Positions 1,297-32,000 are shown, numbered from the stretch's first letter. The stretch is DNA of 32,000 bases from Crocosphaera subtropica ATCC 51142 (GCF_000017845.1 NC_010546.1:2160001-2192000), one strand, 5' to 3'. Notes: generated by a model from the letters alone, not told the origin. Program-made: numbers and translations.

Positions 1297-2262
1297 TTAT
1301 TGAGACACTCTAGCGACGATCGCCCGATGTCTAGGACTGATAGGGGTAATTTTCGGGGGGTTAAACCCTGCTTCTTGTAGGGCTGTTTCTATATCTAAGG
1401 CAAAATATTGATCGAGATAGGGTTCGGTGCTTTTGAGTAGGGTTAAGATGTAGGGGGGCATTTTTTGGTAGGCTTCGGCACGGGGGTTCATGTCCATCAT
1501 GGTAAAGTATCCCCCAGGTTTAAGGAGGCGACGGGCTTCTTTAAAGATGGCGATCGCTGCTGTTTGGGGGAGTTCGTGGTACAACAAAAAGGCTGACACG
1601 AGATCAAAAGAGGTTTCGGGTAAGTTGGTGGCTTCGGCTGCCCCGTGTACCCAGTCAATAGCTAGGTTCCGTTCTTGACTACGGTAATGGGCAACGGCTA
1701 AATGATAGGCTGATAGGTCTAATCCTGTTACCTTTGCGTCGGGGTACATTGCTTGAAGGGGGAAGGTACTCATGCCAACACTACAACCCATGTCTAAAAT
1801 CCTCTGAGGTGTTGAGGATAGCTGTTGTTTCAGAATTTCATGATAATTGTGTCGTAAACGGGGATCTCCATTTACCCCTGCTCCTGGCCAAATACTAGCA
1901 TGAACGGCATAAGCAGCAGATTCTACTTCCAGGGCTGACTCCCAACTTAAATTTCCTGTTTCATAACCATGAAAGGAACACACATAATAATCAGGATAGA
2001 CCAAATTGGGATTTTGAACTTTTTCTAGTTCTTCTTCCCAGTTATGGTTACTCAGTTGACGGACATTATCTCGCCAGGGAACCCCTATTTTTTCTGCCCG
2101 ATTAATGATCATGTTACGGGCTTGATATTTGGCTAGTTTTGCTAAGGGTTTGACAGATAAAATACCATTGATTACACGGGAAGCTAAACTGGGTTTCGAT
2201 GGAAAGGGGGTAGCAGTCATAAAATTTTCTAGATATCGATTATGATAGTAACCAAGTCGCAT
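1297..2262 (-). CDS. Class I SAM-dependent methyltransferase (substrate unknown)
   Basis: 321 aa. Motif I ILDMGCSVGMST, post-I VTGLDLS, and LKPGGYF. An alternative start at Met15 (coordinate 2220) is possible. Confidence 0.7.
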   Translation of the reverse strand: MRLGYYHNRYLENFMTATPFPSKPSLASRVINGILSVKPLAKLAKYQARNMIINRAEKIGVPWRDNVRQLSNHNWEEELEKVQNPNLVYPDYYVCSFHGYETGNLSWESALEVESAAYAVHASIWPGAGVNGDPRLRHNYHEILKQQLSSTPQRILDMGCSVGMSTFPLQAMYPDAKVTGLDLSAYHLAVAHYRSQERNLAIDWVHGAAEATNLPETSFDLVSAFLLYHELPQTAAIAIFKEARRLLKPGGYFTMMDMNPRAEAYQKMPPYILTLLKSTEPYLDQYFALDIETALQEAGFNPPKITPISPRHRAIVARVSQ

Positions 2263-2678
2263 CGATGGTTACTCAATAATTTTCCTTTTTGATTTTATCA
2301 TTAACTGCTATATGAAACTTATGTGAAGATACCAACCAATTGCCTAATGGGAGAATTCAACACTGTCAACTCATTAATCGATATAGAACGAGTTATGTTT
2401 TTCTATCCAATTCACTAAGAAACAAACTAAGATAACCATCGAAACCAGATAACAGATCAGTAAACAATTTTCTAGCATTAATATCAGCCCTTGAAGTTCC
2501 TATGATGATTTCAAGTATGCTAGAGTAATCTGAAACTGTTGTGACAGGATTATGAATGAATGATAAGAATTCATTTAGTTATCTGAGAAGTTTATTTTTC
2601 AGTTGCTATTCAACCCTTTGCAGATGTTCCCGATCGCCTTATAGTGATAGGTGATCCCCAGTTTAATAATGCAGTATC

Positions 2679-3875
2679 GTGAAAAAGATTTCTCTTCTTG
2701 GCTCCACTGGTTCCATTGGCACCCAAACCCTTGATATTGTCAACCAATACCCCGATCAATTTCAAGTGGTGGGTTTGGCAACTCGTTCTAATGTGGAGTT
2801 ATTAGCCACCCAAGTCCAACAGTTTCGTCCTGAGATTGTAGCGATTTGTGATGAGAGCAAACTAGGAAGCCTCAAAGATGCGATCGCAAGTATGGACTAT
2901 TCTCCCCTTATTTTAGCAGGAGAGCAGGGTGTAGCAGAGGTTGCCCGTCACGGGGATGCTGAGAGTGTGGTAACCGGTATTGTGGGATGTGCCGGCTTAT
3001 TACCAACCATTGCAGCCATAGAAGCCGGAAAAGATATTGCTTTAGCTAATAAGGAAACTCTGATCGCAGGGGGTCCGGTGGTCCTGCCTTTAATCGAAAA
3101 ACATGGGGTCAAATTATTACCAGCCGACTCAGAACATTCGGCGATTTTTCAATGTTTACAAGGGGTTCCCGATGGGGGGTTACGACGCATTATTTTAACC
3201 GCTTCTGGGGGTGCATTTCGTGACTGGCCGGTAGAACAATTAAAGTATGTTACGGTACAAGATGCCTTAAAACATCCTAACTGGTCAATGGGTCAAAAAA
3301 TCACCGTTGATTCTGCTACTTTAATGAATAAAGGGTTAGAGGTGATTGAAGCCCATTTCTTGTTTGGAATGGACTATGAAAATATTGATATTGTTATTCA
3401 TCCTCAAAGTATTATTCACTCTTTAATTGAGGTGCAAGATACGTCAGTTTTGGCACAGTTGGGATGGCCAGATATGCGTCTTCCTTTATTGTATGCTTTA
3501 TCTTGGCCTGAAAGAATTTATACTGATTGGGAACAACTGGACTTAGTAAAAGCTGGTAGTTTAACCTTTAGAGAACCCGATCATGATAAATATCCTTGTA
3601 TGCAGTTAGCTTATGCTGCAGGGAATGCAGGAGGGGCAATGCCGGCAGTTTTAAATGCAGCTAATGAGCAAGCGGTTGCCTTATTTTTAGCAGAAAAAAT
3701 CGCCTTTTTAGATATTCCTAAAGTCATTGAAAAAACTTGTGATAATTTCAGAGATCATAACCGTTCTCAACCCAGTTTAGAAGATATTTTAGAAGCAGAT
3801 AAATGGGCAAGAGAAGCTGTTTTGATGGCTGCTGAAGGGCTAGGAACAGAAAATAAAGTTGTTTCTCTAAAATAG
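2679..3875 (+). CDS. dxr: 1-deoxy-D-xylulose 5-phosphate reductoisomerase
   Basis: 398 aa. NADPH motif [13 protein letters not shown], plus [25 protein letters not shown] and [13 protein letters not shown] start. Confidence 0.95.
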
Positions 3876-3911
3876 TGACTGTCACAGTCTGGAAGAATAT
3901 ATTTGTTGGAG

Positions 3912-3932
3912 AGGCTTAATATTATTAAGCCT
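3912..3932 (+). terminator. Hairpin downstream of dxr (9-bp stem aggcttaat/attaagcct, 3-nt loop) followed by tcttgtgtt
   Basis: Perfect palindrome read directly from the sequence, 37 nt after the dxr stop. The T-rich tail is interrupted. Confidence 0.5.
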
Positions 3933-3976
3933 TCTTGTGTTATGGTAGAACTATTTTATAGATTAAACTTGATAAT

Positions 3977-4198
3977 ATGCCCATCAATTTAATTCTATTT
4001 ATCGCTGCTTTATTAGTGTCTTGGCTCGTATTTCGTTGGCTTTTTACCTTCGTTAAGTCAACGGCTACGACCGCCTTAACTATAGCAGTTATTATACTAC
4101 TATTACAAGTTGGTTTTGGCATTGATTCTCAAGATTTATGGAGAGAAATGATTAATCTCCCCAAAACACTCCAAGAACTGTTACCAATGAATAATTAA
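3977..4198 (+). CDS. Small hypothetical membrane protein (two predicted TM helices)
   Basis: 73 aa with two hydrophobic stretches (LILFIAALLVSWLVF and ALTIAVIILLLQVGFG). No recognised family. It competes with an antisense ORF at 3940-4122. Confidence 0.4.
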   Translation: MPINLILFIAALLVSWLVFRWLFTFVKSTATTALTIAVIILLLQVGFGIDSQDLWREMINLPKTLQELLPMNN

Positions 4199-4656: not shown

Positions 4657-5190
4657 TTATAACCAACGAGCTAACTTTTCTTGGGATTGAGCATCAAGAC
4701 AATTGAAGAGTAAACGTCCTCGACTGCGTTTATTGCTGCGTTGTTTACGCTTAACTTGGGAACGAGAGGATTCAATATCTTTGGCTAACACCTCTACTGA
4801 CATCCATTCTGCACCGTAACCCATTGCGGTCAAATATTGATCTCGATCCGATGTAGCAACGATAATACGGTTATAGTTAGTTTGTTGACGACGGAAAAAA
4901 CCAGCACAGACCTTTTCTATGTAGGTATCAGCAGTCTGGGTCCAAGCGGTAAAGTAAATGGAAAGATGGGTAGAGTGATGTTCGATAGAAGAGGGAGTCT
5001 TCTGGTATTGAGAATCAAAGACAACCTGAGTCTTGTAGCCTTTATGAACTGTGTAATTAATTAACGTCTCTACTAATTCGTACCGCGCTTGTTCTAAGCC
5101 GTGGCGATCGCAGGTGCTTTTGAGTGGAGACCATGAGCCGATAATATTATAGCCGTCGACGAGTAATAAGGGTGCAATAGGAGAAGACAT
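4657..5190 (-). CDS. NYN-domain (YacP/Rae1-like) predicted ribonuclease
   Basis: 177 aa. The N-terminal LLLVDGYNIIGSW is typical of the YacP-like NYN/PIN fold. Later acidic motif VATSDRD. Basic C-terminal tail. Confidence 0.7.
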   Translation of the reverse strand: MSSPIAPLLLVDGYNIIGSWSPLKSTCDRHGLEQARYELVETLINYTVHKGYKTQVVFDSQYQKTPSSIEHHSTHLSIYFTAWTQTADTYIEKVCAGFFRRQQTNYNRIIVATSDRDQYLTAMGYGAEWMSVEVLAKDIESSRSQVKRKQRSNKRSRGRLLFNCLDAQSQEKLARWL

Positions 5191-5374
5191 TTTTCTTAAG
5201 AGTGATCATAAATTGTTAACATTTTTAAGGCAAACATTTCATAATATTAACAAAAAATTCACCTTAATGGGAATCTCAAGATGGTGATCTCATGAAACTG
5301 ACAACTTTCCTATTTTCAGGAAAACCTCTACCATAGAAAGGAGAAAGCTTGCAAAGTTACTAATAACTGTCATT

Positions 5375-5632
5375 ATGGATACAATTATTGATGCGATCGC
5401 TTCGCTGCCTCAAGATACCCTAATTGTTGCTGTGTTGTATTTGGGGTTAAGTCTTCTCTATCTCTTGATCATCCCTGGATTTGTCTATTTTTATCTCAAT
5501 AGTCGTTGGTATGTGGCCAGTTCCTTTGAACGAGCCTTTATGTACTTTCTGATGTTCTTTTTCTTCCCTGGGGTTCTCCTGTTAAGTCCGTTTCTTAACT
5601 TTCGTCCCAAACGCCGTCAAGTTAATTCTTGA
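5375..5632 (+). CDS. ndhL: NAD(P)H-quinone oxidoreductase (NDH-1) subunit L
   Basis: 85 aa, two TM helices, core PGFVYFYLNSRWYVASSFERAFMYFLMFFFFPG resembles cyanobacterial NdhL. The ndhL-DUF3007-trpA order is recalled from memory as a common cyanobacterial arrangement. Confidence 0.75.
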   Translation: MDTIIDAIASLPQDTLIVAVLYLGLSLLYLLIIPGFVYFYLNSRWYVASSFERAFMYFLMFFFFPGVLLLSPFLNFRPKRRQVNS

Positions 5633-5672
5633 GTCGGGTTAGAATAAAAACACTAGAACCTTGTAGGCCATC

Positions 5673-5972
5673 ATGAGACGCATCGATGTTATCACCATTA
5701 GCTTAGGAATATTTGCGACGGGGGGCATTATTTACCTCGTATTTCAAGCCATTGGGTTCGATGGCCTCTCCGCAGGGGTTTGGAGTCAAGCTTTATTAGT
5801 AATAGGGGTTTTAGGTTGGACATTAACCTATCTATTCCGAGTAGCTAACAAAGATATGACCTACAATCAACAACTGAAAGACTATGAAGACGCAGTGTTA
5901 CAAAAACGCCTCGAAGAGATGACCCCCGAAGAACTCGAAAAATTACAAAAAGACATGGAAGAAGAATCATAA
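5673..5972 (+). CDS. DUF3007-family small membrane protein
   Basis: 99 aa. Two N-terminal TM helices followed by a charged helical tail (LKDYEDAVLQKRLEEMTPEELEKLQKDMEEE). Sits between ndhL and trpA. Confidence 0.6.
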   Translation: MRRIDVITISLGIFATGGIIYLVFQAIGFDGLSAGVWSQALLVIGVLGWTLTYLFRVANKDMTYNQQLKDYEDAVLQKRLEEMTPEELEKLQKDMEEES

Positions 5973-6061
5973 TCCGAAGTTAGTAGAAATCTTAAAGATC
6001 AGAGAATTAAGACCAATTCAGGGTAAATTGAAAAATGGTAATCTAGCTTGAGTAGACCATA

Positions 6062-6856
6062 ATGACATCGGTTTCTGAGTGTTTTCAATCCCTACGCGAT
6101 CGCAAACAATGCGGACTTATTCCCTTCATTACTGCAGGTGATCCGGATCTTGAGACAACAGCGAAAGCGTTACGGGTTCTCGATGCGTCAGGGGCTGATC
6201 TTATTGAACTCGGTGTCCCTTATTCTGATCCGTTGGCCGATGGACCTGTAATCCAAGCGGCCGCTAGCCGTGCTTTACGTCGAGGGGTAAAGTTAGAAGA
6301 TGTCTTAAATATTGTCAAAGGGGTTCAAGGAGATATTAAAGCTCCTATTATTCTCTTTAGCTACTATAACCCGATTTTTTATCGTGGTATTGAAGCTTTC
6401 TTAGAACAAATTAAGTCTGCTGGGGTCAAAGGGTTGGTGGTTCCTGATTTGCCCCTCGAAGAAGCGGAAACGTTATTGAAACCGGCTGCTGAAATGGGCA
6501 TTGAAGTGACTTTATTAGTTGCCCCCACCAGTCCTATCGAACGGATTAAGGCGATCGCTCATCAGTCTCAAGGGTTTATTTATCTCGTCAGTGTTACAGG
6601 GGTAACTGGTATGAGAACCCAGGTAGCTACTAGAGTCGAAGACCTGCTGAAAAGTCTTCGTAATACAACGGATAAGCCCATTGGGGTCGGATTTGGCATT
6701 TCTGAACCTGAACACGCCTTACAGGTGAAAAATTGGGGATCGGATGCGGTCATTGTGGGCAGTGCTTGCGTCAAAAGGTTGGCTCAAGGAACCCCAGAAG
6801 AAGGATTAAAAGCAGTGGGCGAATTTTGTCAGCGTCTTAAACAAGCTATTCAATAG
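6062..6856 (+). CDS. trpA: Tryptophan synthase alpha chain
   Basis: 264 aa. Motifs [31 protein letters not shown] and [13 protein letters not shown]...GVGFGIS are canonical TrpA. Confidence 0.95.
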
Positions 6857-9593: not shown

Positions 9594-11171
9594 TTAAAGT
9601 TTGACGGTATAAGCGTCTCGAATACCAGACACTTTAGTAATTTCGGTCAAGAGTCCTTCTGGTAAGGGATCGTCCAAACTGAGAGCCATGACTGCATCTC
9701 CCCGTACGATTTTGCGTCCCACTTGCATACTGGCAATGTTAACGTTAAAACTGCCTAACAGGGAACCAATTTTACCAATAATCCCCGGCATATCACGGTG
9801 AACGGTAAATAACATATAGTTACTGGGAGGTACATTAATGGGGAACCCATCCACATCGGTAATGCGAATTTCACCGTCACTTAACAACGCCCCAGTCACG
9901 GAATGTTCTCCTAACGATCCCTGTGCCGAAAGATGCAAAGACCCAGAATAGTCCCGAATGGAAGCGTCACGGGTTTCAATGATGCGGACACCCCGTTCTT
10001 TGGCTTCGATGGCTGCGTTGACGTAATTAACCCGTTCTCGCAAGGCTTGAGAGAGTAATCCTTTAATGGAAGCCACCACAATGGGTTGACCTTTGGTACT
10101 GGCCAATTCCCCTTGTAAGCGAACCGTTAAGCGTTCAATGCGTCCACCGGCTAATTGACCCACTAAATTACCCAAGGTTTCGGCTAATTGCAGATAGGGG
10201 CGCATTTTTTCCATGACATCCGGAGTCAGTCCTGGGATATTCACTGCAGAACGGGCCGGGAGTCCTAATAAAACATCCCTAATTTGTTCAGCCACATCGA
10301 CCGCTACATTGACCTGTGCTTCTGCGGTTGAAGCCCCTAAATGGGGGGTTAAAATGATGTTGTCATAGTTTCTGAGTTTAGATTCTCCGAGGGGTTCTTC
10401 TTCAAACACATCTAAAGCGGCCCCTGCTATTTTACCTTCGGCGATCGCTTCTGCTAGGGCATCTTCGTCAATAGTTCCCCCCCGCGCACAGTTAATAATG
10501 CGGGCTGTGGGCTTCATTTTCCCTAAAGCTTCTTTATTAATGAGGTGGGTGGTTTCGGGGGTTTTGGGGATGTGTAGGGTAATATAATCGGATTCAGCAA
10601 AAAGGAGATCGAGATCCACTAGGGTACACCCTAATTGATCGGCTCGTTCTTTAGAAATAAAGGGATCATAAGCTAATAATTTCATGCCCATAGACTTGGC
10701 CACGTTAGCCACATGGGACCCAATTTTTCCTAAACCGACAACCCCAAGGGTTTTCTTATAGATTTCTGCCCCAATAAAGCGTTTACGTTCCCATTTGTTA
10801 TTTTTAACGGATTGGTTGGCTTCGGGAATGTGGCGAGAGAGGGATAACATCATGGCCAGGGCGTGTTCGGCTGCAGCGATGGTATTTCCTTCTGGGGAAT
10901 TAACCACCACAATACCCTGACGAGTGGCGGCCGGCACATCAATGTTATCAACACCAACCCCTGCCCGTCCAATAATTTTCAGTTGGGTCCCGGCTGCAAT
11001 AATTTCTTTGGTGACACGGGTTCCTGAACGCAGCATCATGGCATCGTATTCAGGGATAATTTTTACTAATTCTTCCGGGGGTAATCCCGTTTTAACATCC
11101 ACCTGCGCCACTTGTGAGAGGATATCAATACCAACTTGGTCAATGGGGTCTGATACAAGAACTTTTGCCAT
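9594..11171 (-). CDS. serA: D-3-phosphoglycerate dehydrogenase
   Basis: 525 aa. NAD motif GVVGLGKIGSHVA. 2-hydroxyacid dehydrogenase catalytic region (NCARGG, DVF..EP, TPHLGAST). C-terminal ASB and ACT-type regulatory domains. Confidence 0.95.
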   Translation of the reverse strand: MAKVLVSDPIDQVGIDILSQVAQVDVKTGLPPEELVKIIPEYDAMMLRSGTRVTKEIIAAGTQLKIIGRAGVGVDNIDVPAATRQGIVVVNSPEGNTIAAAEHALAMMLSLSRHIPEANQSVKNNKWERKRFIGAEIYKKTLGVVGLGKIGSHVANVAKSMGMKLLAYDPFISKERADQLGCTLVDLDLLFAESDYITLHIPKTPETTHLINKEALGKMKPTARIINCARGGTIDEDALAEAIAEGKIAGAALDVFEEEPLGESKLRNYDNIILTPHLGASTAEAQVNVAVDVAEQIRDVLLGLPARSAVNIPGLTPDVMEKMRPYLQLAETLGNLVGQLAGGRIERLTVRLQGELASTKGQPIVVASIKGLLSQALRERVNYVNAAIEAKERGVRIIETRDASIRDYSGSLHLSAQGSLGEHSVTGALLSDGEIRITDVDGFPINVPPSNYMLFTVHRDMPGIIGKIGSLLGSFNVNIASMQVGRKIVRGDAVMALSLDDPLPEGLLTEITKVSGIRDAYTVKL

Positions 11172-26173: not shown

Positions 26174-28828
26174 TTAAAAATCATCAAAAATATCTAATTG
26201 TTCAATTAATTCTGCTTTATTATTTTTATTGTTTTTAGGATTAATTTGACTAATGCCTTCTCTCAACCCTAACGCAATTTTACTGTGAGTTTCTATCTGG
26301 TTCATAACTTGTTTTGCCCGACTAATAACCGAAGCAGGTAAACCGGCTAATCTTCCCGCTTCAATGCCATAAGATTTATCAGCCCCACCCGGTCTAACTT
26401 GATGTAAAAAGACAATTTCATGGGGTAATTCTTGCACCGTCACTTGATAGTTAGCTACATTAAAAAGAATAGAAGCAAGTTCATTTAATTCATGGTAATG
26501 AGTCGCAAAAATAGTTCTTCCTTGTACTTCTGTGGCGAGATATTCTGCTACCGCCCAAGCAATAGAAAGTCCGTCAAAAGTAGCGGTTCCCCTGCCAATT
26601 TCATCTAATAAAATTAAAGATTTTTCGGTCGCATGATTTAAAATATTGGCTGTTTCATTCATTTCTACCATAAACGTTGATTGTCCCGTGGCTAAATCAT
26701 CTACTGCACCTACACGGGTAAAAATGCGATCGCTAATGCCTAATTTTGCCTCTGTAGCAGGGACAAAACTCCCCGTCTGGGCCATTAATTGAATCAGTCC
26801 AACTTGTCTTAAATAACAGCTTTTTCCACTGGCATTAGGACCGGTTAAAATGATTAAATCGGGGCTAGTTTCTCCTTCATTGCGTCCCATGTTAGTGGAG
26901 TTGGGAACGAATAAACCAAACCCTAAAGATTGTTCTACTACAGGGTGTCGACCGTCTGCGATTTCTATTAAGCGACTATCTAAAATTTCGGGGCGACAAT
27001 AGCCTTGAAATACAGCAATTTCTGCAAATCCTGATAAGACATCAATGGCAGCCACTGCTTTAGCAATTTTACGAATTTCTTGGGCTTTTTCTGCTACTTT
27101 TAAACGCAATTCTACAAAAATTTCATACTCTAATTTATTGAGGTCATCTTGTGCGGTTAAGATACGGGTTTCTCGTTCTTTTAATTCTGGGGTAATATAC
27201 CGTTCTTCGTTGGTTAATGTTTGTTTTCTGACGTAATTATCCGGTGCTTGTTCTGCTTTACTGCGAGGCATACTTAAATAGTAGCCAAAGGTCTTATTAT
27301 ACCCAACCTTTAAGTTAGAAACGCCCGTTCTTTCTCTCTCGCTAATTTCTAAATTAGCTAACCATTGACGGTCATCTTCTAACCGTTTTCGCATGGTATC
27401 TAAATCAGCATTAATACCATCCCTGATAACACCACCATCTTTTAAATGTAAGGGAGGAGATTCCACTAAATGATCGATAACATAATGCCCTAATTTTTCT
27501 AAATCTGGGGGAATATTTTGTAAGGCTTTTAAATATAATGATTCCCCTTGTTGTGCTAATTCTGCTAACTCTTTTAACTTAACTAATGATTCCGCTAAAG
27601 ATAATAAATCCCGTGCATTAGCTGTTCCGGCTCCCACTCTTCCGCTAATTCTTTCTAAGTCATAAATACTGCGTAACAACTGTCTAATTTCTTGCCGTAA
27701 GGTAGGATTATCAATTAACTCTTGTATGGTGTTTTGTCTAGCAATAATTCCTTTAATGCTGATCAAAGGTTCTAATAACCAACGACGTAAGGCACGGCCT
27801 CCCATTGCTGTACAGGTGCGATCTAACGCCCATAACAAGGAACCATGAAAACTCCCATCTCTAACGGTTTGAGTTATTTCTAAATTGCGACGGGTTTGAT
27901 AATCTAAAATAAGAAAGTCAACTTGGTTATAAGTGCGTAATAATTGTAAGGGGACTTGATGGGCTTTTTGAGTATCTTCTATGTATTCTAATAAGCCGCC
28001 GGCTGCTCGAATCGCTAGGGGTAAATGTTCACAGCCAAACCCTTCTAAAGACCGAACTCGAAAGTTAATTAAAAGCTTACTTTTTGCCTCATTTAGAGTA
28101 AAAGGCGTTTGCGATCGCAGGGAATAACAAAAACAGTCAGGTAACACATCTGCTAAATATTGAGATTTTTCCCCAGGACGCAATAAACTGTTAATATCAG
28201 GGGCATTAGTAGGGATTAAAATCTCTGCTGGTTGTAGCCTTAATAACTCTAGATTGAGATTGGTTAATTCTTTTGATTGGGTAGTAAAAAATTCTCCTGT
28301 GGAGATGTCAGCGTAAGCGAGTCCCCAATGTTCGCCGGCAATGACAACTGCAGCTAAATAATTGTTCTGTTTCGCTGATAGCATTCCCTCATCTGTTAGG
28401 GTTCCTGGGGTCAAAAGTTTGGTAATTTGTCGCTCTACCATTCGCCCTTGGGCCGCAGCTTGGGCGGAGTCTTCTACTTGGTCACAAATCGCCACAGCAT
28501 AGCCTTTTTCTACTAATAAACGACTATAGCGATCTAAGGCATGATGGGGAACCCCAGTCATAGCAACCCTACCTATTTCTTTTCCCCCTTCTTTACTGGT
28601 TAACATTAACTCTAATTCTTGGGAAATGGTAACAGCATCTTGAAAAAAACATTCAAAAAAATCACCAACTCTGTATAGTAATAAAGCGTTAGGATACTGT
28701 TGTTTAACTTTTACATAATGTTGATACATTGGGGTTAATTTCTTAACCTCCAAGGGACGATAATCAGTATGAGGAGATTTACTGGTAGCAATATTAGGAT
28801 TAAGGTTTGATTCTGAATAACTGAACAT
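26174..28828 (-). CDS. mutS: DNA mismatch repair protein MutS
   Basis: 884 aa. N-terminal mismatch-binding [31 protein letters not shown], Walker A GPNASGKS, plus STFMVEMNE and [12 protein letters not shown]. Confidence 0.97.
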
Positions 28829-29021
28829 TGATAATCAGTGGTTGGAAAGTAATATTATAGTTTAGATAAGCAGGGTAATAGGGAGTAGGGAAAGGGGGAA
28901 TAACTTATTTACATTTCTTAAGATAATTCATTGTATTGATGTTTAAAGTCAGTCCATTATAAACTATCTTAGAGGATGAGTTTAGTAGGGTGGGCATTGC
29001 CGACCTTACAGTAATGTCATG

Positions 29022-29054
29022 AAAAAAAGGGTTAACTAACTAAGTTATTACCCT
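29022..29054 (-). terminator. Rho-independent-type terminator oriented for minus-strand transcription
   Basis: The hairpin at 29028-29054 has agggt/accct plus taac/gtta pairs with one bulge. On the minus strand it is followed by seven consecutive T (29022-29028). On the plus strand the tail is only ttaatcttt. Confidence 0.55.
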
Positions 29055-29113
29055 TTAATCTTTGTATTTAATTTTTATTAACTCATATTTTCTATTAAGG
29101 AAAAAAGAGCTTT

Positions 29114-29144
29114 TATTCAACTAGGTTCTCCTGTTCGGAGAAAG
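29114..29144. repeat. 31-bp direct repeat, copy 1 (tattcaactaggttctcctgttcggagaaag)
   Basis: Identical to 29185-29215. Contains the hairpin ttctcc-tgttc-ggagaa. Confidence 0.9.
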
Positions 29145-29184
29145 CTGAGTCAACAATTATTTGACGAGTATTTTGCGATGTTTC

Positions 29185-29215
29185 TATTCAACTAGGTTCT
29201 CCTGTTCGGAGAAAG
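29185..29215. repeat. 31-bp direct repeat, copy 2
   Basis: Perfect copy, 71 bp downstream of copy 1, leaving a 40-bp spacer. Confidence 0.9.
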
Positions 29216-29255
29216 AGTTCGTCTGAGAGCCTTTACCCAGAGCGAGTTTCGAGGC

Positions 29256-29402
29256 ACAAATCGACGCAACCCATGTAATAATCATACTACAGCCATCAAT
29301 ATTCGACAACTCGTAACCCTCAAATCCAGGCCAGGTAAGGCATCGACGCAGTTCGACGAAAGAATGGGGGTTTTGACGATTTTGGGGATTGCGTCGATTT
29401 GT
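29256..29402. other. GC-richer 147-bp element bounded by a perfect 14-bp inverted repeat: candidate structured RNA, operator array or MITE
   Basis: acaaatcgacgcaa (29256-29269) is the exact reverse complement of ttgcgtcgatttgt (29389-29402). A third atcgacgca lies at 29342-29350. Further (t/c)gacg motifs are at 29353, 29374 and 29163. An internal 8-bp helix 29315-29322/29365-29372 needs one G-U pair if read on the + strand. Confidence 0.5.
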
Positions 29403-29439
29403 CATCACTTAGATAAAATGAGAAAAAAAGGAGAATACA

Positions 29440-30501
29440 ATGGTCAAAAAAATTGCTTTATTTAATCATAAAGGTGGAGTTAGTAAAACAACCACAACCT
29501 TTAATTTAGGTTGGATGCTGGCAACTAAAGGATATAGAGTTATTTTAGTAGATACTGATCCTCAATGTAATTTAACAGGAATGGCTTTAGGAGAAGCGAC
29601 AGAAGAGGATGAAGATAGAATCGAGAGAATTTATAATACGAGGTCAAATATTAAGACCGGTTTAGCCCCTGCATTTGAGTCGCAACCCAGAGCAATTGAA
29701 GCAGTAGATTGTATTCAGATAGGTGATCAAGAGGGATTATTTTTATTACCTGGCCATGTGGGATTTGCTGAATATGAAGTAACACTAGGAATAGCACAAG
29801 AATTGAGTGGATCAATTCAAGCTTTGAAGAATTTACCAGGTTCTATCACGGACTTATTGAATAAAACAGCTACTAAATTTAATGCTGACTATATTTTAAT
29901 TGATATGAGTCCCAGTTTAGGAGCGATTAATCAAAACTTATTGATGACCAGTGATTTTTTTATAGTTCCTACCACGGCTGACTTCTTTTCTTTAATGGCA
30001 ATTGATTCTTTATCTAATATTTTACCGAAATGGTATAACTGGGCTAAAACAGCAAGTTCTTTACCAATTTTGAAAGAAGCAAGTTATCCCTTTCCTGATG
30101 TGACTTTAAAGTTTTTAGGCATTATTGTTCAGAATTTTAGAATTATTCGTGGTAAAGAAACCGTTGCTTTTGAAAAGTGGATTATTAAAATTCAAGAAGA
30201 TGTTTATAATAAATTAGTTCCTATTTTACAAAAACATAATATGATGTTTCCCGAAACTATTTATCATGAGCAAGGAATGAATGATAGTTATTGCTTAACT
30301 AAAATTGCTAATTTCAACAGCTTAATTGCTCTATCTCAAGAGCATAGAACGCCAATTTACGATTTAACTTCACAACAATTAGGACAAGGAGGTGTAGTAT
30401 TACAAAAAAGTCAACAAAAACAAGAAGAATTTAGAGAAACTTTTTCAGAATTAGCGGATAAAATAATTAATTTAACGTCAGCTTATGCAGTCAGCCATTG
30501 A
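29440..30501 (+). CDS. ParA/MinD-superfamily P-loop ATPase (long form, no ParB partner)
   Basis: 353 aa. Deviant Walker A KGGVSKTT (nt 29470-29493), VILVDTDPQCN and Walker B YILIDMSPSLG. AGGAG lies 6 nt before the ATG. Confidence 0.85.
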   Translation: MVKKIALFNHKGGVSKTTTTFNLGWMLATKGYRVILVDTDPQCNLTGMALGEATEEDEDRIERIYNTRSNIKTGLAPAFESQPRAIEAVDCIQIGDQEGLFLLPGHVGFAEYEVTLGIAQELSGSIQALKNLPGSITDLLNKTATKFNADYILIDMSPSLGAINQNLLMTSDFFIVPTTADFFSLMAIDSLSNILPKWYNWAKTASSLPILKEASYPFPDVTLKFLGIIVQNFRIIRGKETVAFEKWIIKIQEDVYNKLVPILQKHNMMFPETIYHEQGMNDSYCLTKIANFNSLIALSQEHRTPIYDLTSQQLGQGGVVLQKSQQKQEEFRETFSELADKIINLTSAYAVSH

Positions 30502-31234
30502 TCAATTTAGAATTAGTATCCAAAGGGTTAGGGATCTAATTTCACTGCATAATTCGATTAAAGTTCAATCAACCTCTGCGCTGGATTTATCGGATATATT
30601 AAGAGCAGCTTTAGTATTAACAGTAAGTGCATTAGATTACTATATTCATGAAGTGGTTGTATTGGGAATGTTAGAAATTTATCGAGGACAACGGAGTGAA
30701 CCTAACCCCTCTCGTAATACCTCTAAATCAGCTTTTTCTCGCTTCAAAGTGTCTTTAGGTGGAGCAAGTCAAGAGAGACAAATAGCTTTAGATATTGCCA
30801 ACTGGTTAGAAACGGAAATTCAAAAAAACTATGGCTCTGAATTTCTCCAACAATCTTATAATCTTTCTCAGTTATTACCTATGATATCTAATAGTATGAT
30901 TAATAGACTGAATAATACCAGTTGGTTAGAAGCTGAAATTAGAGAAACGTTAAGCTATCAAAGTTTTCAGCAACCTGATAAAATTGCTGATGCGATTCGA
31001 TTAATTTCTGATAAAAAGTTATGGGACGAAGTAGGAAATAATATGAATAAACCAGCAAAAGATATTAAACAACAACTCACTTTAATTGTTGATCGTAGAA
31101 ATAAAATTGCTCATGAAGCAGATATTGATCCAACTTATAATATAGGAAATCGTTGGCCCATTGATGAAATTTTAGTCAGTGAAACCGTTGATTTTATCGA
31201 GGAAGTGGTTGAAAATATCCATCAAATTTTATAA
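30485..31234 (+). CDS. HEPN-like predicted RNase (Rx4H motif), possibly MAE_28990/MAE_18760- or RiboL-PSP-type HEPN
   Basis: 249 aa and helix-rich by composition. R205-N-K-I-A-H210 (nt 31097-31114) sits in the context LIVDRRNKIAHEAD near the C-terminus. The N-terminal helix LRAALVLTVSALDYYIHE is typical of the first HEPN helix. The ATG overlaps the ParA-like ORF by 17 nt. Confidence 0.65.
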   Translation: MQSAIDQFRISIQRVRDLISLHNSIKVQSTSALDLSDILRAALVLTVSALDYYIHEVVVLGMLEIYRGQRSEPNPSRNTSKSAFSRFKVSLGGASQERQIALDIANWLETEIQKNYGSEFLQQSYNLSQLLPMISNSMINRLNNTSWLEAEIRETLSYQSFQQPDKIADAIRLISDKKLWDEVGNNMNKPAKDIKQQLTLIVDRRNKIAHEADIDPTYNIGNRWPIDEILVSETVDFIEEVVENIHQIL

Positions 31235-31239
31235 ATAAA

Positions 31240-31259
31240 GGGTCAACAACCGTTGACCC
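31240..31259. terminator. Hairpin gggtcaac-aacc-gttgaccc between the convergent HEPN and eno genes
   Basis: Perfect 8-bp stem with a 4-nt loop. It is followed by a T/A-rich run (tttattta) on the minus strand, so it most likely terminates eno and may also stop the + strand operon. Confidence 0.6.
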
Positions 31260-31270
31260 CTACATGAAAA

Positions 31271-32000
<730 letters not shown>

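Follow-up and report, generated by a model that had tools for sequence, protein, structure and literature searches.

A ParA/MinD-class ATPase and a predicted ribonuclease (RNase) of the HEPN superfamily were found to form a widespread, self-contained two-gene module, which we analysed in a stretch of DNA from Crocosphaera subtropica (Cyanothece) ATCC 51142. This stretch, the window, is 32,000 nt long, and positions are counted within it unless another locus is named. The module consists of an ATPase of ~345-355 amino acids (aa) and a HEPN protein of the RiboL-PSP family, and the pairing of the two is essentially obligate. Proteins of the ParA family are familiar as motors for positioning and segregation; in this module a ParA-family ATPase is tied to a predicted HEPN RNase, across ~1000 clusters and several phyla. 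The reading that we put forward, and to which we give about an even chance of being correct, is that the pair would act as a switch of the toxin-antitoxin (TA) or abortive-infection type, in which binding by the ATPase keeps the RNase in check until release is licensed by the ATP cycle of the ATPase. The observations on which this is based are the ParA fold and intact motifs of the ATPase, the Rx4H motif of the HEPN protein, the adjacency and overlap of the genes, their co-evolution, the mobility of the module in proteobacteria and its constraint in cyanobacteria.

The ATPase-HEPN pair and its distribution

The two genes and the motifs within them are as follows.

29430..29433, + strand: GGAG, Shine-Dalgarno-like motif read from the sequence, 6 nt upstream of the ATPase ATG
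29440..30501, + strand: ATPase gene, open reading frame (ORF) of 353 aa; long ParA/Soj-type ATPase (SIMIBI) with deviant Walker A; GenBank ACB51504.1
29470..29493, + strand: deviant Walker A KGGVSKTT (aa 11-18), with signature lysine K11 and P-loop lysine K16
29551..29565, + strand: DTDPQ (aa 38-42), Walker A'/switch region, sequence motif
29893..29913, + strand: Walker B ILIDMSP (aa 152-158), sequence motif
30485..30501, + strand: 17-nt gene overlap, the HEPN ATG lying within the ATPase 3' end
30485..31234, + strand: HEPN gene, ORF of 249 aa; RiboL-PSP family, predicted metal-independent RNase; GenBank ACB51505.1
30602..30649, + strand: N-terminal cluster LRxxLVxxVSALDYYIH (HEPN aa 40-55), from alignments A1 and A2
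30782..30922 (approximate), + strand: ~50-aa helical insertion (~aa 100-146) of the long cyanobacterial HEPN protein, from alignment A1
31097..31114, + strand: Rx4H motif RNKIAH (R205-H210), inside the invariant VDRRNKIAHEAD

Both ORFs, with their coordinates, + strand and placement between mutS and eno, were exactly as described in the initial annotation of this DNA, and the motifs KGGVSKTT, DTDPQ, ILIDMSP and RNKIAH named there were all present in them. The first gene had been called a long ParA/MinD-type ATPase, and profile and structure searches bore this out. Pfam returned AAA_31 (E 2.8e-31, 109 bits) and CbiA (E 1.3e-14, 54.6 bits), both above their cut-offs, and the nearest solved structure was that of the uncharacterised 361-aa protein DIP2308 (PDB 3pg5; E 3.6e-20, aa 3-324). 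When the AlphaFold2 model (predicted local distance difference test, pLDDT, 73.5) was compared by Foldseek, the Soj proteins of H. pylori and T. thermophilus and 3pg5 were recovered at E 1.5e-11 to 8e-11 with a probability of 1.00; the template-modelling scores were only 0.5-0.7, owing to the longer model and its moderate confidence. With a deviant Walker A (KGGxxK[ST]), Walker A' and Walker B on a Soj/ParA fold, the protein was assigned to the ParA/MinD/Soj group. Among 35 canonical homologues of the ATPase, K11, G12, T17 and T18 were invariant and G13, S15 and K16 were at least 90% conserved. As had been noted from its size, it is much longer than solved Soj/ParA proteins (243-264 aa), and the extra ~100 aa were made up of a C-terminal helical extension and an insert at ~aa 50-100 that was poorly modelled. 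Pfam found no domain above cut-off in this extension, in the internal insert or in a 74-aa antisense ORF upstream of the gene. GenBank names the two products 'putative regulatory protein cII' (ACB51504.1) and 'unknown' (ACB51505.1), the former being unsupported, as all Pfam and NCBIfam matches were to P-loop NTPases, bar a weak sub-threshold match to WipA_N.

The second gene is supported as encoding a HEPN-superfamily protein and predicted RNase. HEPN_RiboL-PSP (PF18735) matched it at E 3.4e-13 and 50.4 bits (cut-off 28.4) over profile positions 4-189 of 191, and also matched 36 of 36 diverse relatives, so that the HEPN membership proposed initially was recovered by profile search, along with an invariant Rx4H motif. 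The suggestion that it belonged to a MAE_28990/MAE_18760-like family was not upheld: HEPN_MAE_28990 (PF18737) stayed below cut-off on the window protein (19.8 bits against 26.8) and reached E <= 0.01 in only 6 of the 36 relatives (best E 7.1e-05). Among 36 sequences extending down to 28% identity, the invariant columns were R40, D51, H55, W180, R205, I208, H210 and D213, and R205 and H210 were likewise invariant in the 67 sequences of alignment A2. R40, D51 and H55, invariant family-wide, belong to a second conserved cluster, LR..SALDxYIHE. The AlphaFold2 model was all-helical (pLDDT 86), with Rx4H at the end of helix 191-209 and a drop in pLDDT to 66-84 across the ~50-aa insertion. PHROGs assigned the protein to PHROG 13503 (function unknown).

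The distribution of the pair was examined by a genome scan using one genome per species and exact peptide patterns, which gave at least 363 sites with relatives, a lower bound; the best 80 of these were all cyanobacterial, and the pairing count rests on them. The ATPase gene was directly upstream, on the same strand, at 78 of these 80 loci. Among 1.84 billion representatives searched exhaustively, 979 HEPN clusters (50% identity) were found at E <= 1e-3, most of them of ~200 aa and matching the query in two stretches, which indicates that the cyanobacterial 249-aa form carries the ~50-aa insertion. This insertion is absent from the 199-206-aa relatives, most relatives matching aa 1-80 and 140-249. 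Down to 25-30% HEPN identity, an ATPase gene abutted the HEPN gene on every metagenome contig that reached far enough upstream, and on 18 of 18 viral contigs that had a HEPN match. The co-occurrence of the two genes, for which a check of gene neighbourhoods had been proposed, was thus borne out in genomes, viruses and metagenomes, and goes far beyond chance.

Two module subtypes were observed in cyanobacteria, long (249-aa HEPN) and short (201 aa, 58-60% identical), as in P0427/P0440/L190 versus P0033; some genomes may hold two paralogous copies, both subtypes being reported from 'unclassified Microcoleus'.

The 17-nt overlap was exact at 72 of the 75 measurable cyanobacterial loci and was found, together with a 349-351-aa ATPase, in Terriglobia, at loci L184-L187 and in Phormidium; overlaps of 17 nt or of 1-8 nt were kept across phyla. 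It is therefore real and no start-codon artefact. It recurs because the HEPN N-terminus, M-Q-x-A-I-D/E, encodes the TGA of the ATPase, which in the window is formed by the Ile-Asp codons of MQSAID. The ATPase was always better conserved than its HEPN partner in a scan made with the alignment of diverse relatives, and the pairwise identities of the two proteins were correlated (r = 0.80). The conserved overlap, obligate adjacency and this correlation agree with the translational coupling that had been suggested for the pair, and with strict co-inheritance of the two genes.

Outside cyanobacteria, Burkholderia glumae conjugative plasmids and Pseudomonas Pf-type filamentous phages were found to carry distant HEPN proteins (~25% identity), each preceded by an overlapping gene for a 341-343-aa ATPase with 36% full-length identity to that of the window (E ~1e-85). 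Among plasmids and phages no close copies of the pair were found, only these ~25%-identity relatives.

That the pair is carried by plasmids and by inoviruses, whose genomes replicate episomally, would suit a partition or positioning system, in which a true segregation ParA would act with a non-catalytic helical ParB substitute and stabilise the Pf replicative form or plasmids. PHROG 164, 'ParA-like partition protein', does match the ATPase (E 3.8e-48), and weak sub-threshold NCBIfam matches to RepA/ParA point the same way. However, every NCBIfam equivalog for partition, MinD or BcsQ fell far below its cut-off on the ATPase (TIGR03453, 65 against 348 bits; NF041546, ParA_partition, 61 against 180; SopA, 35 against 725). 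The absence of a ParB or centromere-binding partner, which had been pointed out from the gene order, was also confirmed, the constant neighbour being a HEPN protein with no helix-turn-helix (HTH), ribbon-helix-helix or ParB match and with a catalytic motif that is invariant over ~1000 clusters. Together with the ancient chromosomal residence of the pair at varied cyanobacterial loci and the retention of catalytically dead ATPases, both described below, this makes a partition role very unlikely.

Residence of the pair and exchange of the ATPase allele

The flanking genes and the block that differs between strains are as follows.

26174..28828, - strand: mutS, flanking the pair on one side
28985..30484: block apparently replaced by recombination, made up of 455 nt of upstream DNA and the whole ATPase gene, and ending exactly at the HEPN start codon
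31271..31993, - strand: eno, 3' part (the gene runs beyond), the other flank, convergent with the HEPN gene

In cyanobacteria the pair has resided in the chromosome since ancient times, has been inherited mostly vertically and is under strong purifying selection, its conservation there being unusually deep. Between cyanobacterial orders, synonymous divergence (pS) was saturated at 0.66-0.84 and non-synonymous divergence (pN) was low at 0.12-0.17, so that the 75-80% identity of the proteins reflects ancient residence under such selection. The HEPN protein was identical in length, 249 aa, across cyanobacterial orders, and 45% of its columns were at least 95% conserved (78 loci). In the phylogeny of the pair, nearest neighbours were mostly of the same genus or family.

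Two exceptions to this pattern were observed. The pair of a 'Chroococcales' metagenome-assembled genome (MAG; L024) was almost identical to that of Fortiea (L019, Nostocales) with pS of 0.17-0.23, and that of a Microcoleaceae MAG (L041) was close to that of a Leptolyngbyaceae MAG (L069) with pS of 0.31-0.37, reflecting either occasional horizontal transfer within cyanobacteria or mis-binning of MAGs.

The initial annotation had suggested that the pair is acquired DNA, and recent acquisition by ATCC 51142 of a foreign defence islet between mutS and eno would account for 3.2 kb without a HIP1 octamer, for the low GC content and for an ATPase gene that, with 455 nt upstream of it, differs sharply from sister strains. 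However, the order mutS-pair-eno was common to C. chwakensis CCY0110 and Crocosphaera MAGs, and HEPN identity (93, 93, 89, 88 and 85%) dropped alongside that of MutS (98, 95, 94, 92 and 92%). The HIP1 octamer was indeed absent between 28118 and 31310, but this could not serve as a sign of acquisition, since the 3199-nt gap was only the third largest of 20; the chance of a HIP1-free stretch in the window was P ~0.31 for 1.8 kb and ~0.12 for 3.2 kb. Similarly, the pair is AT-rich (GC 0.32-0.33; GC at third codon positions, GC3, 0.21) but within the range of the window, where four other ORFs have a GC3 of 0.21-0.23. What was exchanged was an allele and not the locus. On the grounds of Crocosphaera synteny, a HIP1 gap and GC3 within the window's own range and saturated synonymous sites between orders, recent acquisition was rejected, and we regard the islet as highly improbable. 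The HIP1 octamer itself, GCGATCGC, occurred at 21 sites in the 32 kb against 0.09 expected from shuffled sequences, the usual cyanobacterial over-representation.

Alignment with the sister strains showed that the ATPase allele, with its presumed promoter region, had apparently been exchanged by homologous recombination in ATCC 51142. Compared with C. chwakensis, MutS was 98%, Eno 99% and the HEPN protein 93% identical, and the ATPase only 60%. When the window was compared with L001 and L002 per 100 nt, the flanks were 88-100% identical (mostly 92-97%) and the block 28985..30484 only 20-82%. The pS values against the sister strains were 0.48 for the ATPase, 0.17 for the HEPN gene and 0.31 for mutS, and the excess of the first over the other two points to an exchanged allele rather than to mere acceleration. 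Upstream, 28829-28980 was common to the window and the sister strains, and 28985-29439 was essentially unmatched in other loci, with one marginal 27-nt match in L042. The ATPase allele of the window is of the canonical type, with a median identity of 77% to all others and 90% to that of Crocosphaera sp. XPORK-15E.

In the sister strains of the window, C. chwakensis and Crocosphaera MAGs (L001-L004), the ATPase alleles were found to have lost their nucleotide-binding motifs (L001, 4956-6014; L002, 3483-4541; L003, 4685-5758; L004, 4968-6014); a dead allele was also present in L103. In L001-L004 the Walker A sequence NHKGGVSKTT was changed to NYEFGFSQEI (K11E, G12F, K16Q), DTDPQ was degraded to DANPT or DADSN, and Walker B was also destroyed. 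These ATPases nevertheless stayed full-length and kept the 17-nt overlap, with omega values of 0.27-0.41, and the HEPN proteins beside them kept every catalytic residue (omega 0.11-0.21). As judged from motifs and substitution rates, they are natural pseudo-ATPases still under purifying selection.

These alleles bear on how the HEPN protein would be neutralised. In an enzymatic antitoxin akin to type VII, the ATPase would modify the HEPN protein covalently at the expense of ATP, for example by phosphorylation, like the bacterial tyrosine kinases (BY-kinases) of the same fold and by analogy with MntA, which AMPylates HepT. The ATPase does take the place that the MNT nucleotidyltransferase has in MNT-HEPN modules, its Walker motifs are invariant in canonical alleles, a conserved pair of tyrosines lies next to H55 of the HEPN protein (LDYYIHE), and a kinase option was proposed in PMC3710099. 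If catalysis were needed for neutralisation, however, Walker-dead genotypes should be lethal or the HEPN gene should decay, and four sister genomes devoid of Walker A, A' and B keep a constrained, intact HEPN gene. The motifs are, moreover, ParA-like (DTDPQ), and the tyrosine cluster of BY-kinases was not seen by eye in the ATPase C-terminus. Enzymatic modification is thus unlikely, and dead ATPases beside intact HEPN proteins favour neutralisation by binding. They predict, for the switch put forward here, neutralisation by binding and activation by ATP.

The proposed switch and competing explanations

A dyad of a ParA/Soj ATPase and a HEPN protein had already been described and predicted to be a TA system, with the ATPase as antitoxin (Anantharaman, Makarova, Burroughs, Koonin & Aravind 2013, Biol Direct 8:15, PMC3710099), so that the architecture, initially taken as unknown, is not new. 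In that work the antitoxin was suggested to act by nucleotide-dependent conformational change or by phosphorylation. The window pair agrees with this dyad in having a ParA/Soj-like SIMIBI ATPase immediately upstream of a small HEPN protein with an intact Rx4-6H motif. In contrast, PMC3710099 places its dyad in the MAE_18760 family, and its entry for RiboL-PSP-HEPN reads 'fused to L-PSP; operon with ParB', whereas the window HEPN protein and its 36 relatives are RiboL-PSP-HEPN by Pfam, the comparison being one of family assignment only. The statement that no ParA-HEPN system had been characterised experimentally was confirmed by a literature search, which found no functional study of the RiboL-PSP pair, of a ParA-like/AAA_31 ATPase with a HEPN protein, or of DIP2308/3PG5. 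The initial interpretation was thus partly right, in that a coupled ATPase-HEPN module of TA or defence type leads, and wrong on the family, on recency and on novelty of the architecture.

In the proposed switch, the HEPN protein would be a metal-independent RNase with a composite active site that is completed only when the protein dimerises. Through the conserved gene overlap, itself observed, the ATPase would be produced in a fixed ratio to the HEPN protein and would hold the RNase inactive by stoichiometric binding, without enzymatic modification. The ParA-type cycle of ATP binding and dimerisation, possibly tied to binding of nucleoid DNA, would be the switch: on a trigger, it would release or license the RNase. 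Candidate triggers are attack by a phage or mobile element and energy or nucleoid collapse. Release would lead to RNA cleavage and growth arrest. The organisation resembles that of type II TA modules, being an overlapping two-gene unit in which the HEPN gene is rarely found without the ATPase gene, with one intact orphan (L077), and a conflict-system flavour is lent by phage and plasmid carriage, TA and restriction neighbours, the long and short subtypes and the swapped ATPase allele.

Several results weigh against this reading. The saturated pS, taxonomy-tracking phylogeny and ordinary neighbours of the cyanobacterial pair are unlike those of typical TA or defence genes. A census of 829 ORFs flanking 78 cyanobacterial loci revealed no defence islands and only genus-level synteny; the neighbours were ordinary genes (ABC transporter, Uma2, aldo-keto reductase, U32 peptidase, LysR), so that a location in defence islands, raised at the outset, was not borne out. 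In PADLOC-DB v2.0 the HEPN protein had no match, and the matches of the ATPase were confined to PDC-M28B (E 7e-7, covering the 38-aa Walker A region) and PtuB (E 0.012); neither protein thus meaningfully fits any of its defence models. Searched by Foldseek, the HEPN model had no significant match in either PDB (best E 0.55) or BFVD (best E 0.21), the weak matches including HepT (7ae8, E ~4) and a MAE_28990-like phage HEPN protein (E 3.9), and a profile search of PDB sequences reached only E 0.26 at best, so that the assignment to the HEPN superfamily is based on the profile match and on the motif. In an uncultured Stigonema MAG (L077), an ORF resembling an insertion sequence (IS)-type transposase (5021-5809, - strand) stands in place of the ATPase gene and the HEPN ORF (6001-6753, + strand) is intact, its sole difference being E211Q; this one clear orphan argues against a constitutively lethal toxin, though whether it is expressed in L077 bears on the point. 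Finally, toxicity, RNase activity and ATPase-HEPN interaction are, for all members, predictions from sequence.

The same cyanobacterial features would be explained by a domesticated housekeeping module, regulatory or RNA-processing, in which a site-specific HEPN RNase would be linked through the ParA-type ATPase to the ATP or nucleoid status of the cell, and we consider this a possible, though less probable, explanation. HEPN enzymes with physiological roles are known in Las1, Ire1 and RNase L. Mostly vertical inheritance, the strong constraint seen in pS and pN, the highly conserved HEPN columns and constant length, ordinary neighbours, genus-level synteny, a phylogeny that tracks taxonomy and the lack of a meaningful PADLOC match are all in its favour. 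In contrast, filamentous phages and conjugative plasmids carry the module with a full-length ATPase homologue, and elsewhere (Terriglobia) it lies beside TA genes; ATPase-dead alleles occur in the closest relatives, the 363 genome sites are a lower bound on the relatives, and the module appears dispensable or decaying in some lineages (frameshifts, deletion fusion, IS replacement). The lesions comprise a deletion fusion in L160 (3876-4366), where ATPase aa 1-41 are followed directly by HEPN aa 128-249, frameshifted HEPN genes in L152 and L157 and a frameshifted ATPase gene in L071 (a 3x-coverage MAG), and they represent either occasional module decay or assembly errors.

A further view, which we hold only tentatively and consider rather improbable, is that the long-form cyanobacterial pair would be an anciently domesticated, near-core RNase switch gated by ParA and derived from a common stock with the mobile TA version of phages and plasmids. 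Such a switch would sense the ATP or nucleoid state of the cell by way of the ParA dimerisation cycle and respond with HEPN cleavage of RNA at specific sites. If true, this would be the first ParA-family ATPase to control an RNase instead of positioning cargo, and the Walker-A-dead alleles of Crocosphaera would be ready-made separation-of-function mutants. The mobile proteobacterial copies, set against the ancient, constrained cyanobacterial ones, offer a test case for the domestication of conflict systems.

Known systems were compared with the TA-type switch that we favour. Type VII HepT-MntA (PMC3710099; PMC11586414, PMC13000451) resembles the pair in that a compact operon of two genes encodes a small HEPN RNase toxin and, in the place of the antitoxin, a nucleotide-using partner. 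Unlike HepT-MntA, the partner here is a ParA-fold ATPase and not an MNT nucleotidyltransferase, with no NTP_transf match; the window HEPN protein does not match HepT significantly in either sequence or fold; and the natural Walker-A-dead alleles beside intact HEPN genes argue against enzymatic neutralisation. Soj/ParA and McdA share with the ATPase the signature-lysine Walker A, the DxDPQ switch and a Soj fold, the Foldseek matches (E 1e-11) being 8jml, 2bek and 6iub together with the McdA of Cyanothece (6non), but the ATPase is ~100 aa longer, has no ParB or McdB-type partner and stays below the cut-offs of partition equivalogs. Septu PtuAB, PARIS AriAB and Gabija GajAB had been offered as analogues, and only the general logic of an NTPase and a nuclease effector in a two-gene operon stood. 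Septu, PARIS and Gabija use ABC/OLD-type ATPases; in contrast, the ATPase here has a ParA/Soj (SIMIBI) fold, the PtuB match is meaningless and no homology was detected.

The closest parallels were Pf-borne. In the Pf1-type prophage AY324828, a HEPN match (426-935 in the record) lies downstream of, and overlaps, Orf317, 'similar to Soj (ParA)', and in phage WX-TY the ATPase is 36% identical to that of the window over its full length and the overlapping HEPN protein 27% identical. Unlike the window pair, the Pf copies are on integrative filamentous phage, with a HEPN protein of ~200 aa and an overlap of a few nt (8 in WX-TY). In Pf annotation the ATPase is called 'putative regulatory protein' (PA14_49030, Pf5) and the downstream HEPN ORF is unannotated in AY324828; we infer from shared annotation and position that PA14_49030 is equivalent to Orf317. 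No functional work on the Pf-borne dyad was found in the literature. The module is tractable, as it consists of two small genes and occurs in a P. aeruginosa Pf-type prophage, by annotation also in Pf5 of the laboratory strain PA14, and in many culturable cyanobacteria; the invariant R40, D51, H55, R205 and H210 define informative mutants. Even if it were simply another TA or abortive-infection module, it would fill a gap in defence catalogues, PADLOC missing it.

Genomic contexts and other features of the locus

Outside cyanobacteria, the dyad adjoins an inovirus integrase or rides on conjugative plasmids. In AY324828 (L183) the ATPase ORF (2055-3008) and HEPN ORF (3001-3510) are at the prophage end, and in phage WX-TY (L082) the dyad (2477-4109) is beside the integrase. 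In Terriglobia it stands beside MazE-PIN and an HTH/ImmA-like (Peptidase_M78) gene. At loci L184-L187 a Type ISP restriction enzyme is encoded ~6 kb upstream and an RtcB RNA ligase 1 kb downstream (9617-11071, - strand). RtcB rejoins RNA ends bearing a 2',3'-cyclic phosphate, the kind left by HEPN RNases; its proximity may be coincidental. In L188 (Terriglobia), from an unrelated phylum, an enolase gene (361-1650) likewise lay no more than 6 kb from the pair, which is probably coincidence.

In the window, an Rfam scan of 28700-31400 gave a single match, at chance level. The 455 nt of strain-specific sequence that precede the ATPase gene contain a 34-nt direct repeat (29111-29144 and 29182-29215, 71 nt apart), each copy with a TTCTCC..GGAGAA hairpin, and a 17-nt inverted repeat (29256-29272 and 29386-29402). 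No further copies of either were found in the window or in homologous loci, and the region of the 34-nt repeat folded no better than shuffled sequences (z = -0.5). These repeats could be operator sites or the scar of a small mobile element. The same intergenic region holds the antisense 74-aa ORF (GTG start, 29184-29408, - strand), which had no Pfam match and is probably spurious. One further feature lies between the HEPN gene and eno.

31238..31261: GC-rich hairpin (GGGTCAAC...GTTGACCC), from a terminator scan, consensus match only

This hairpin is probably the shared terminator of the convergent HEPN and eno genes.

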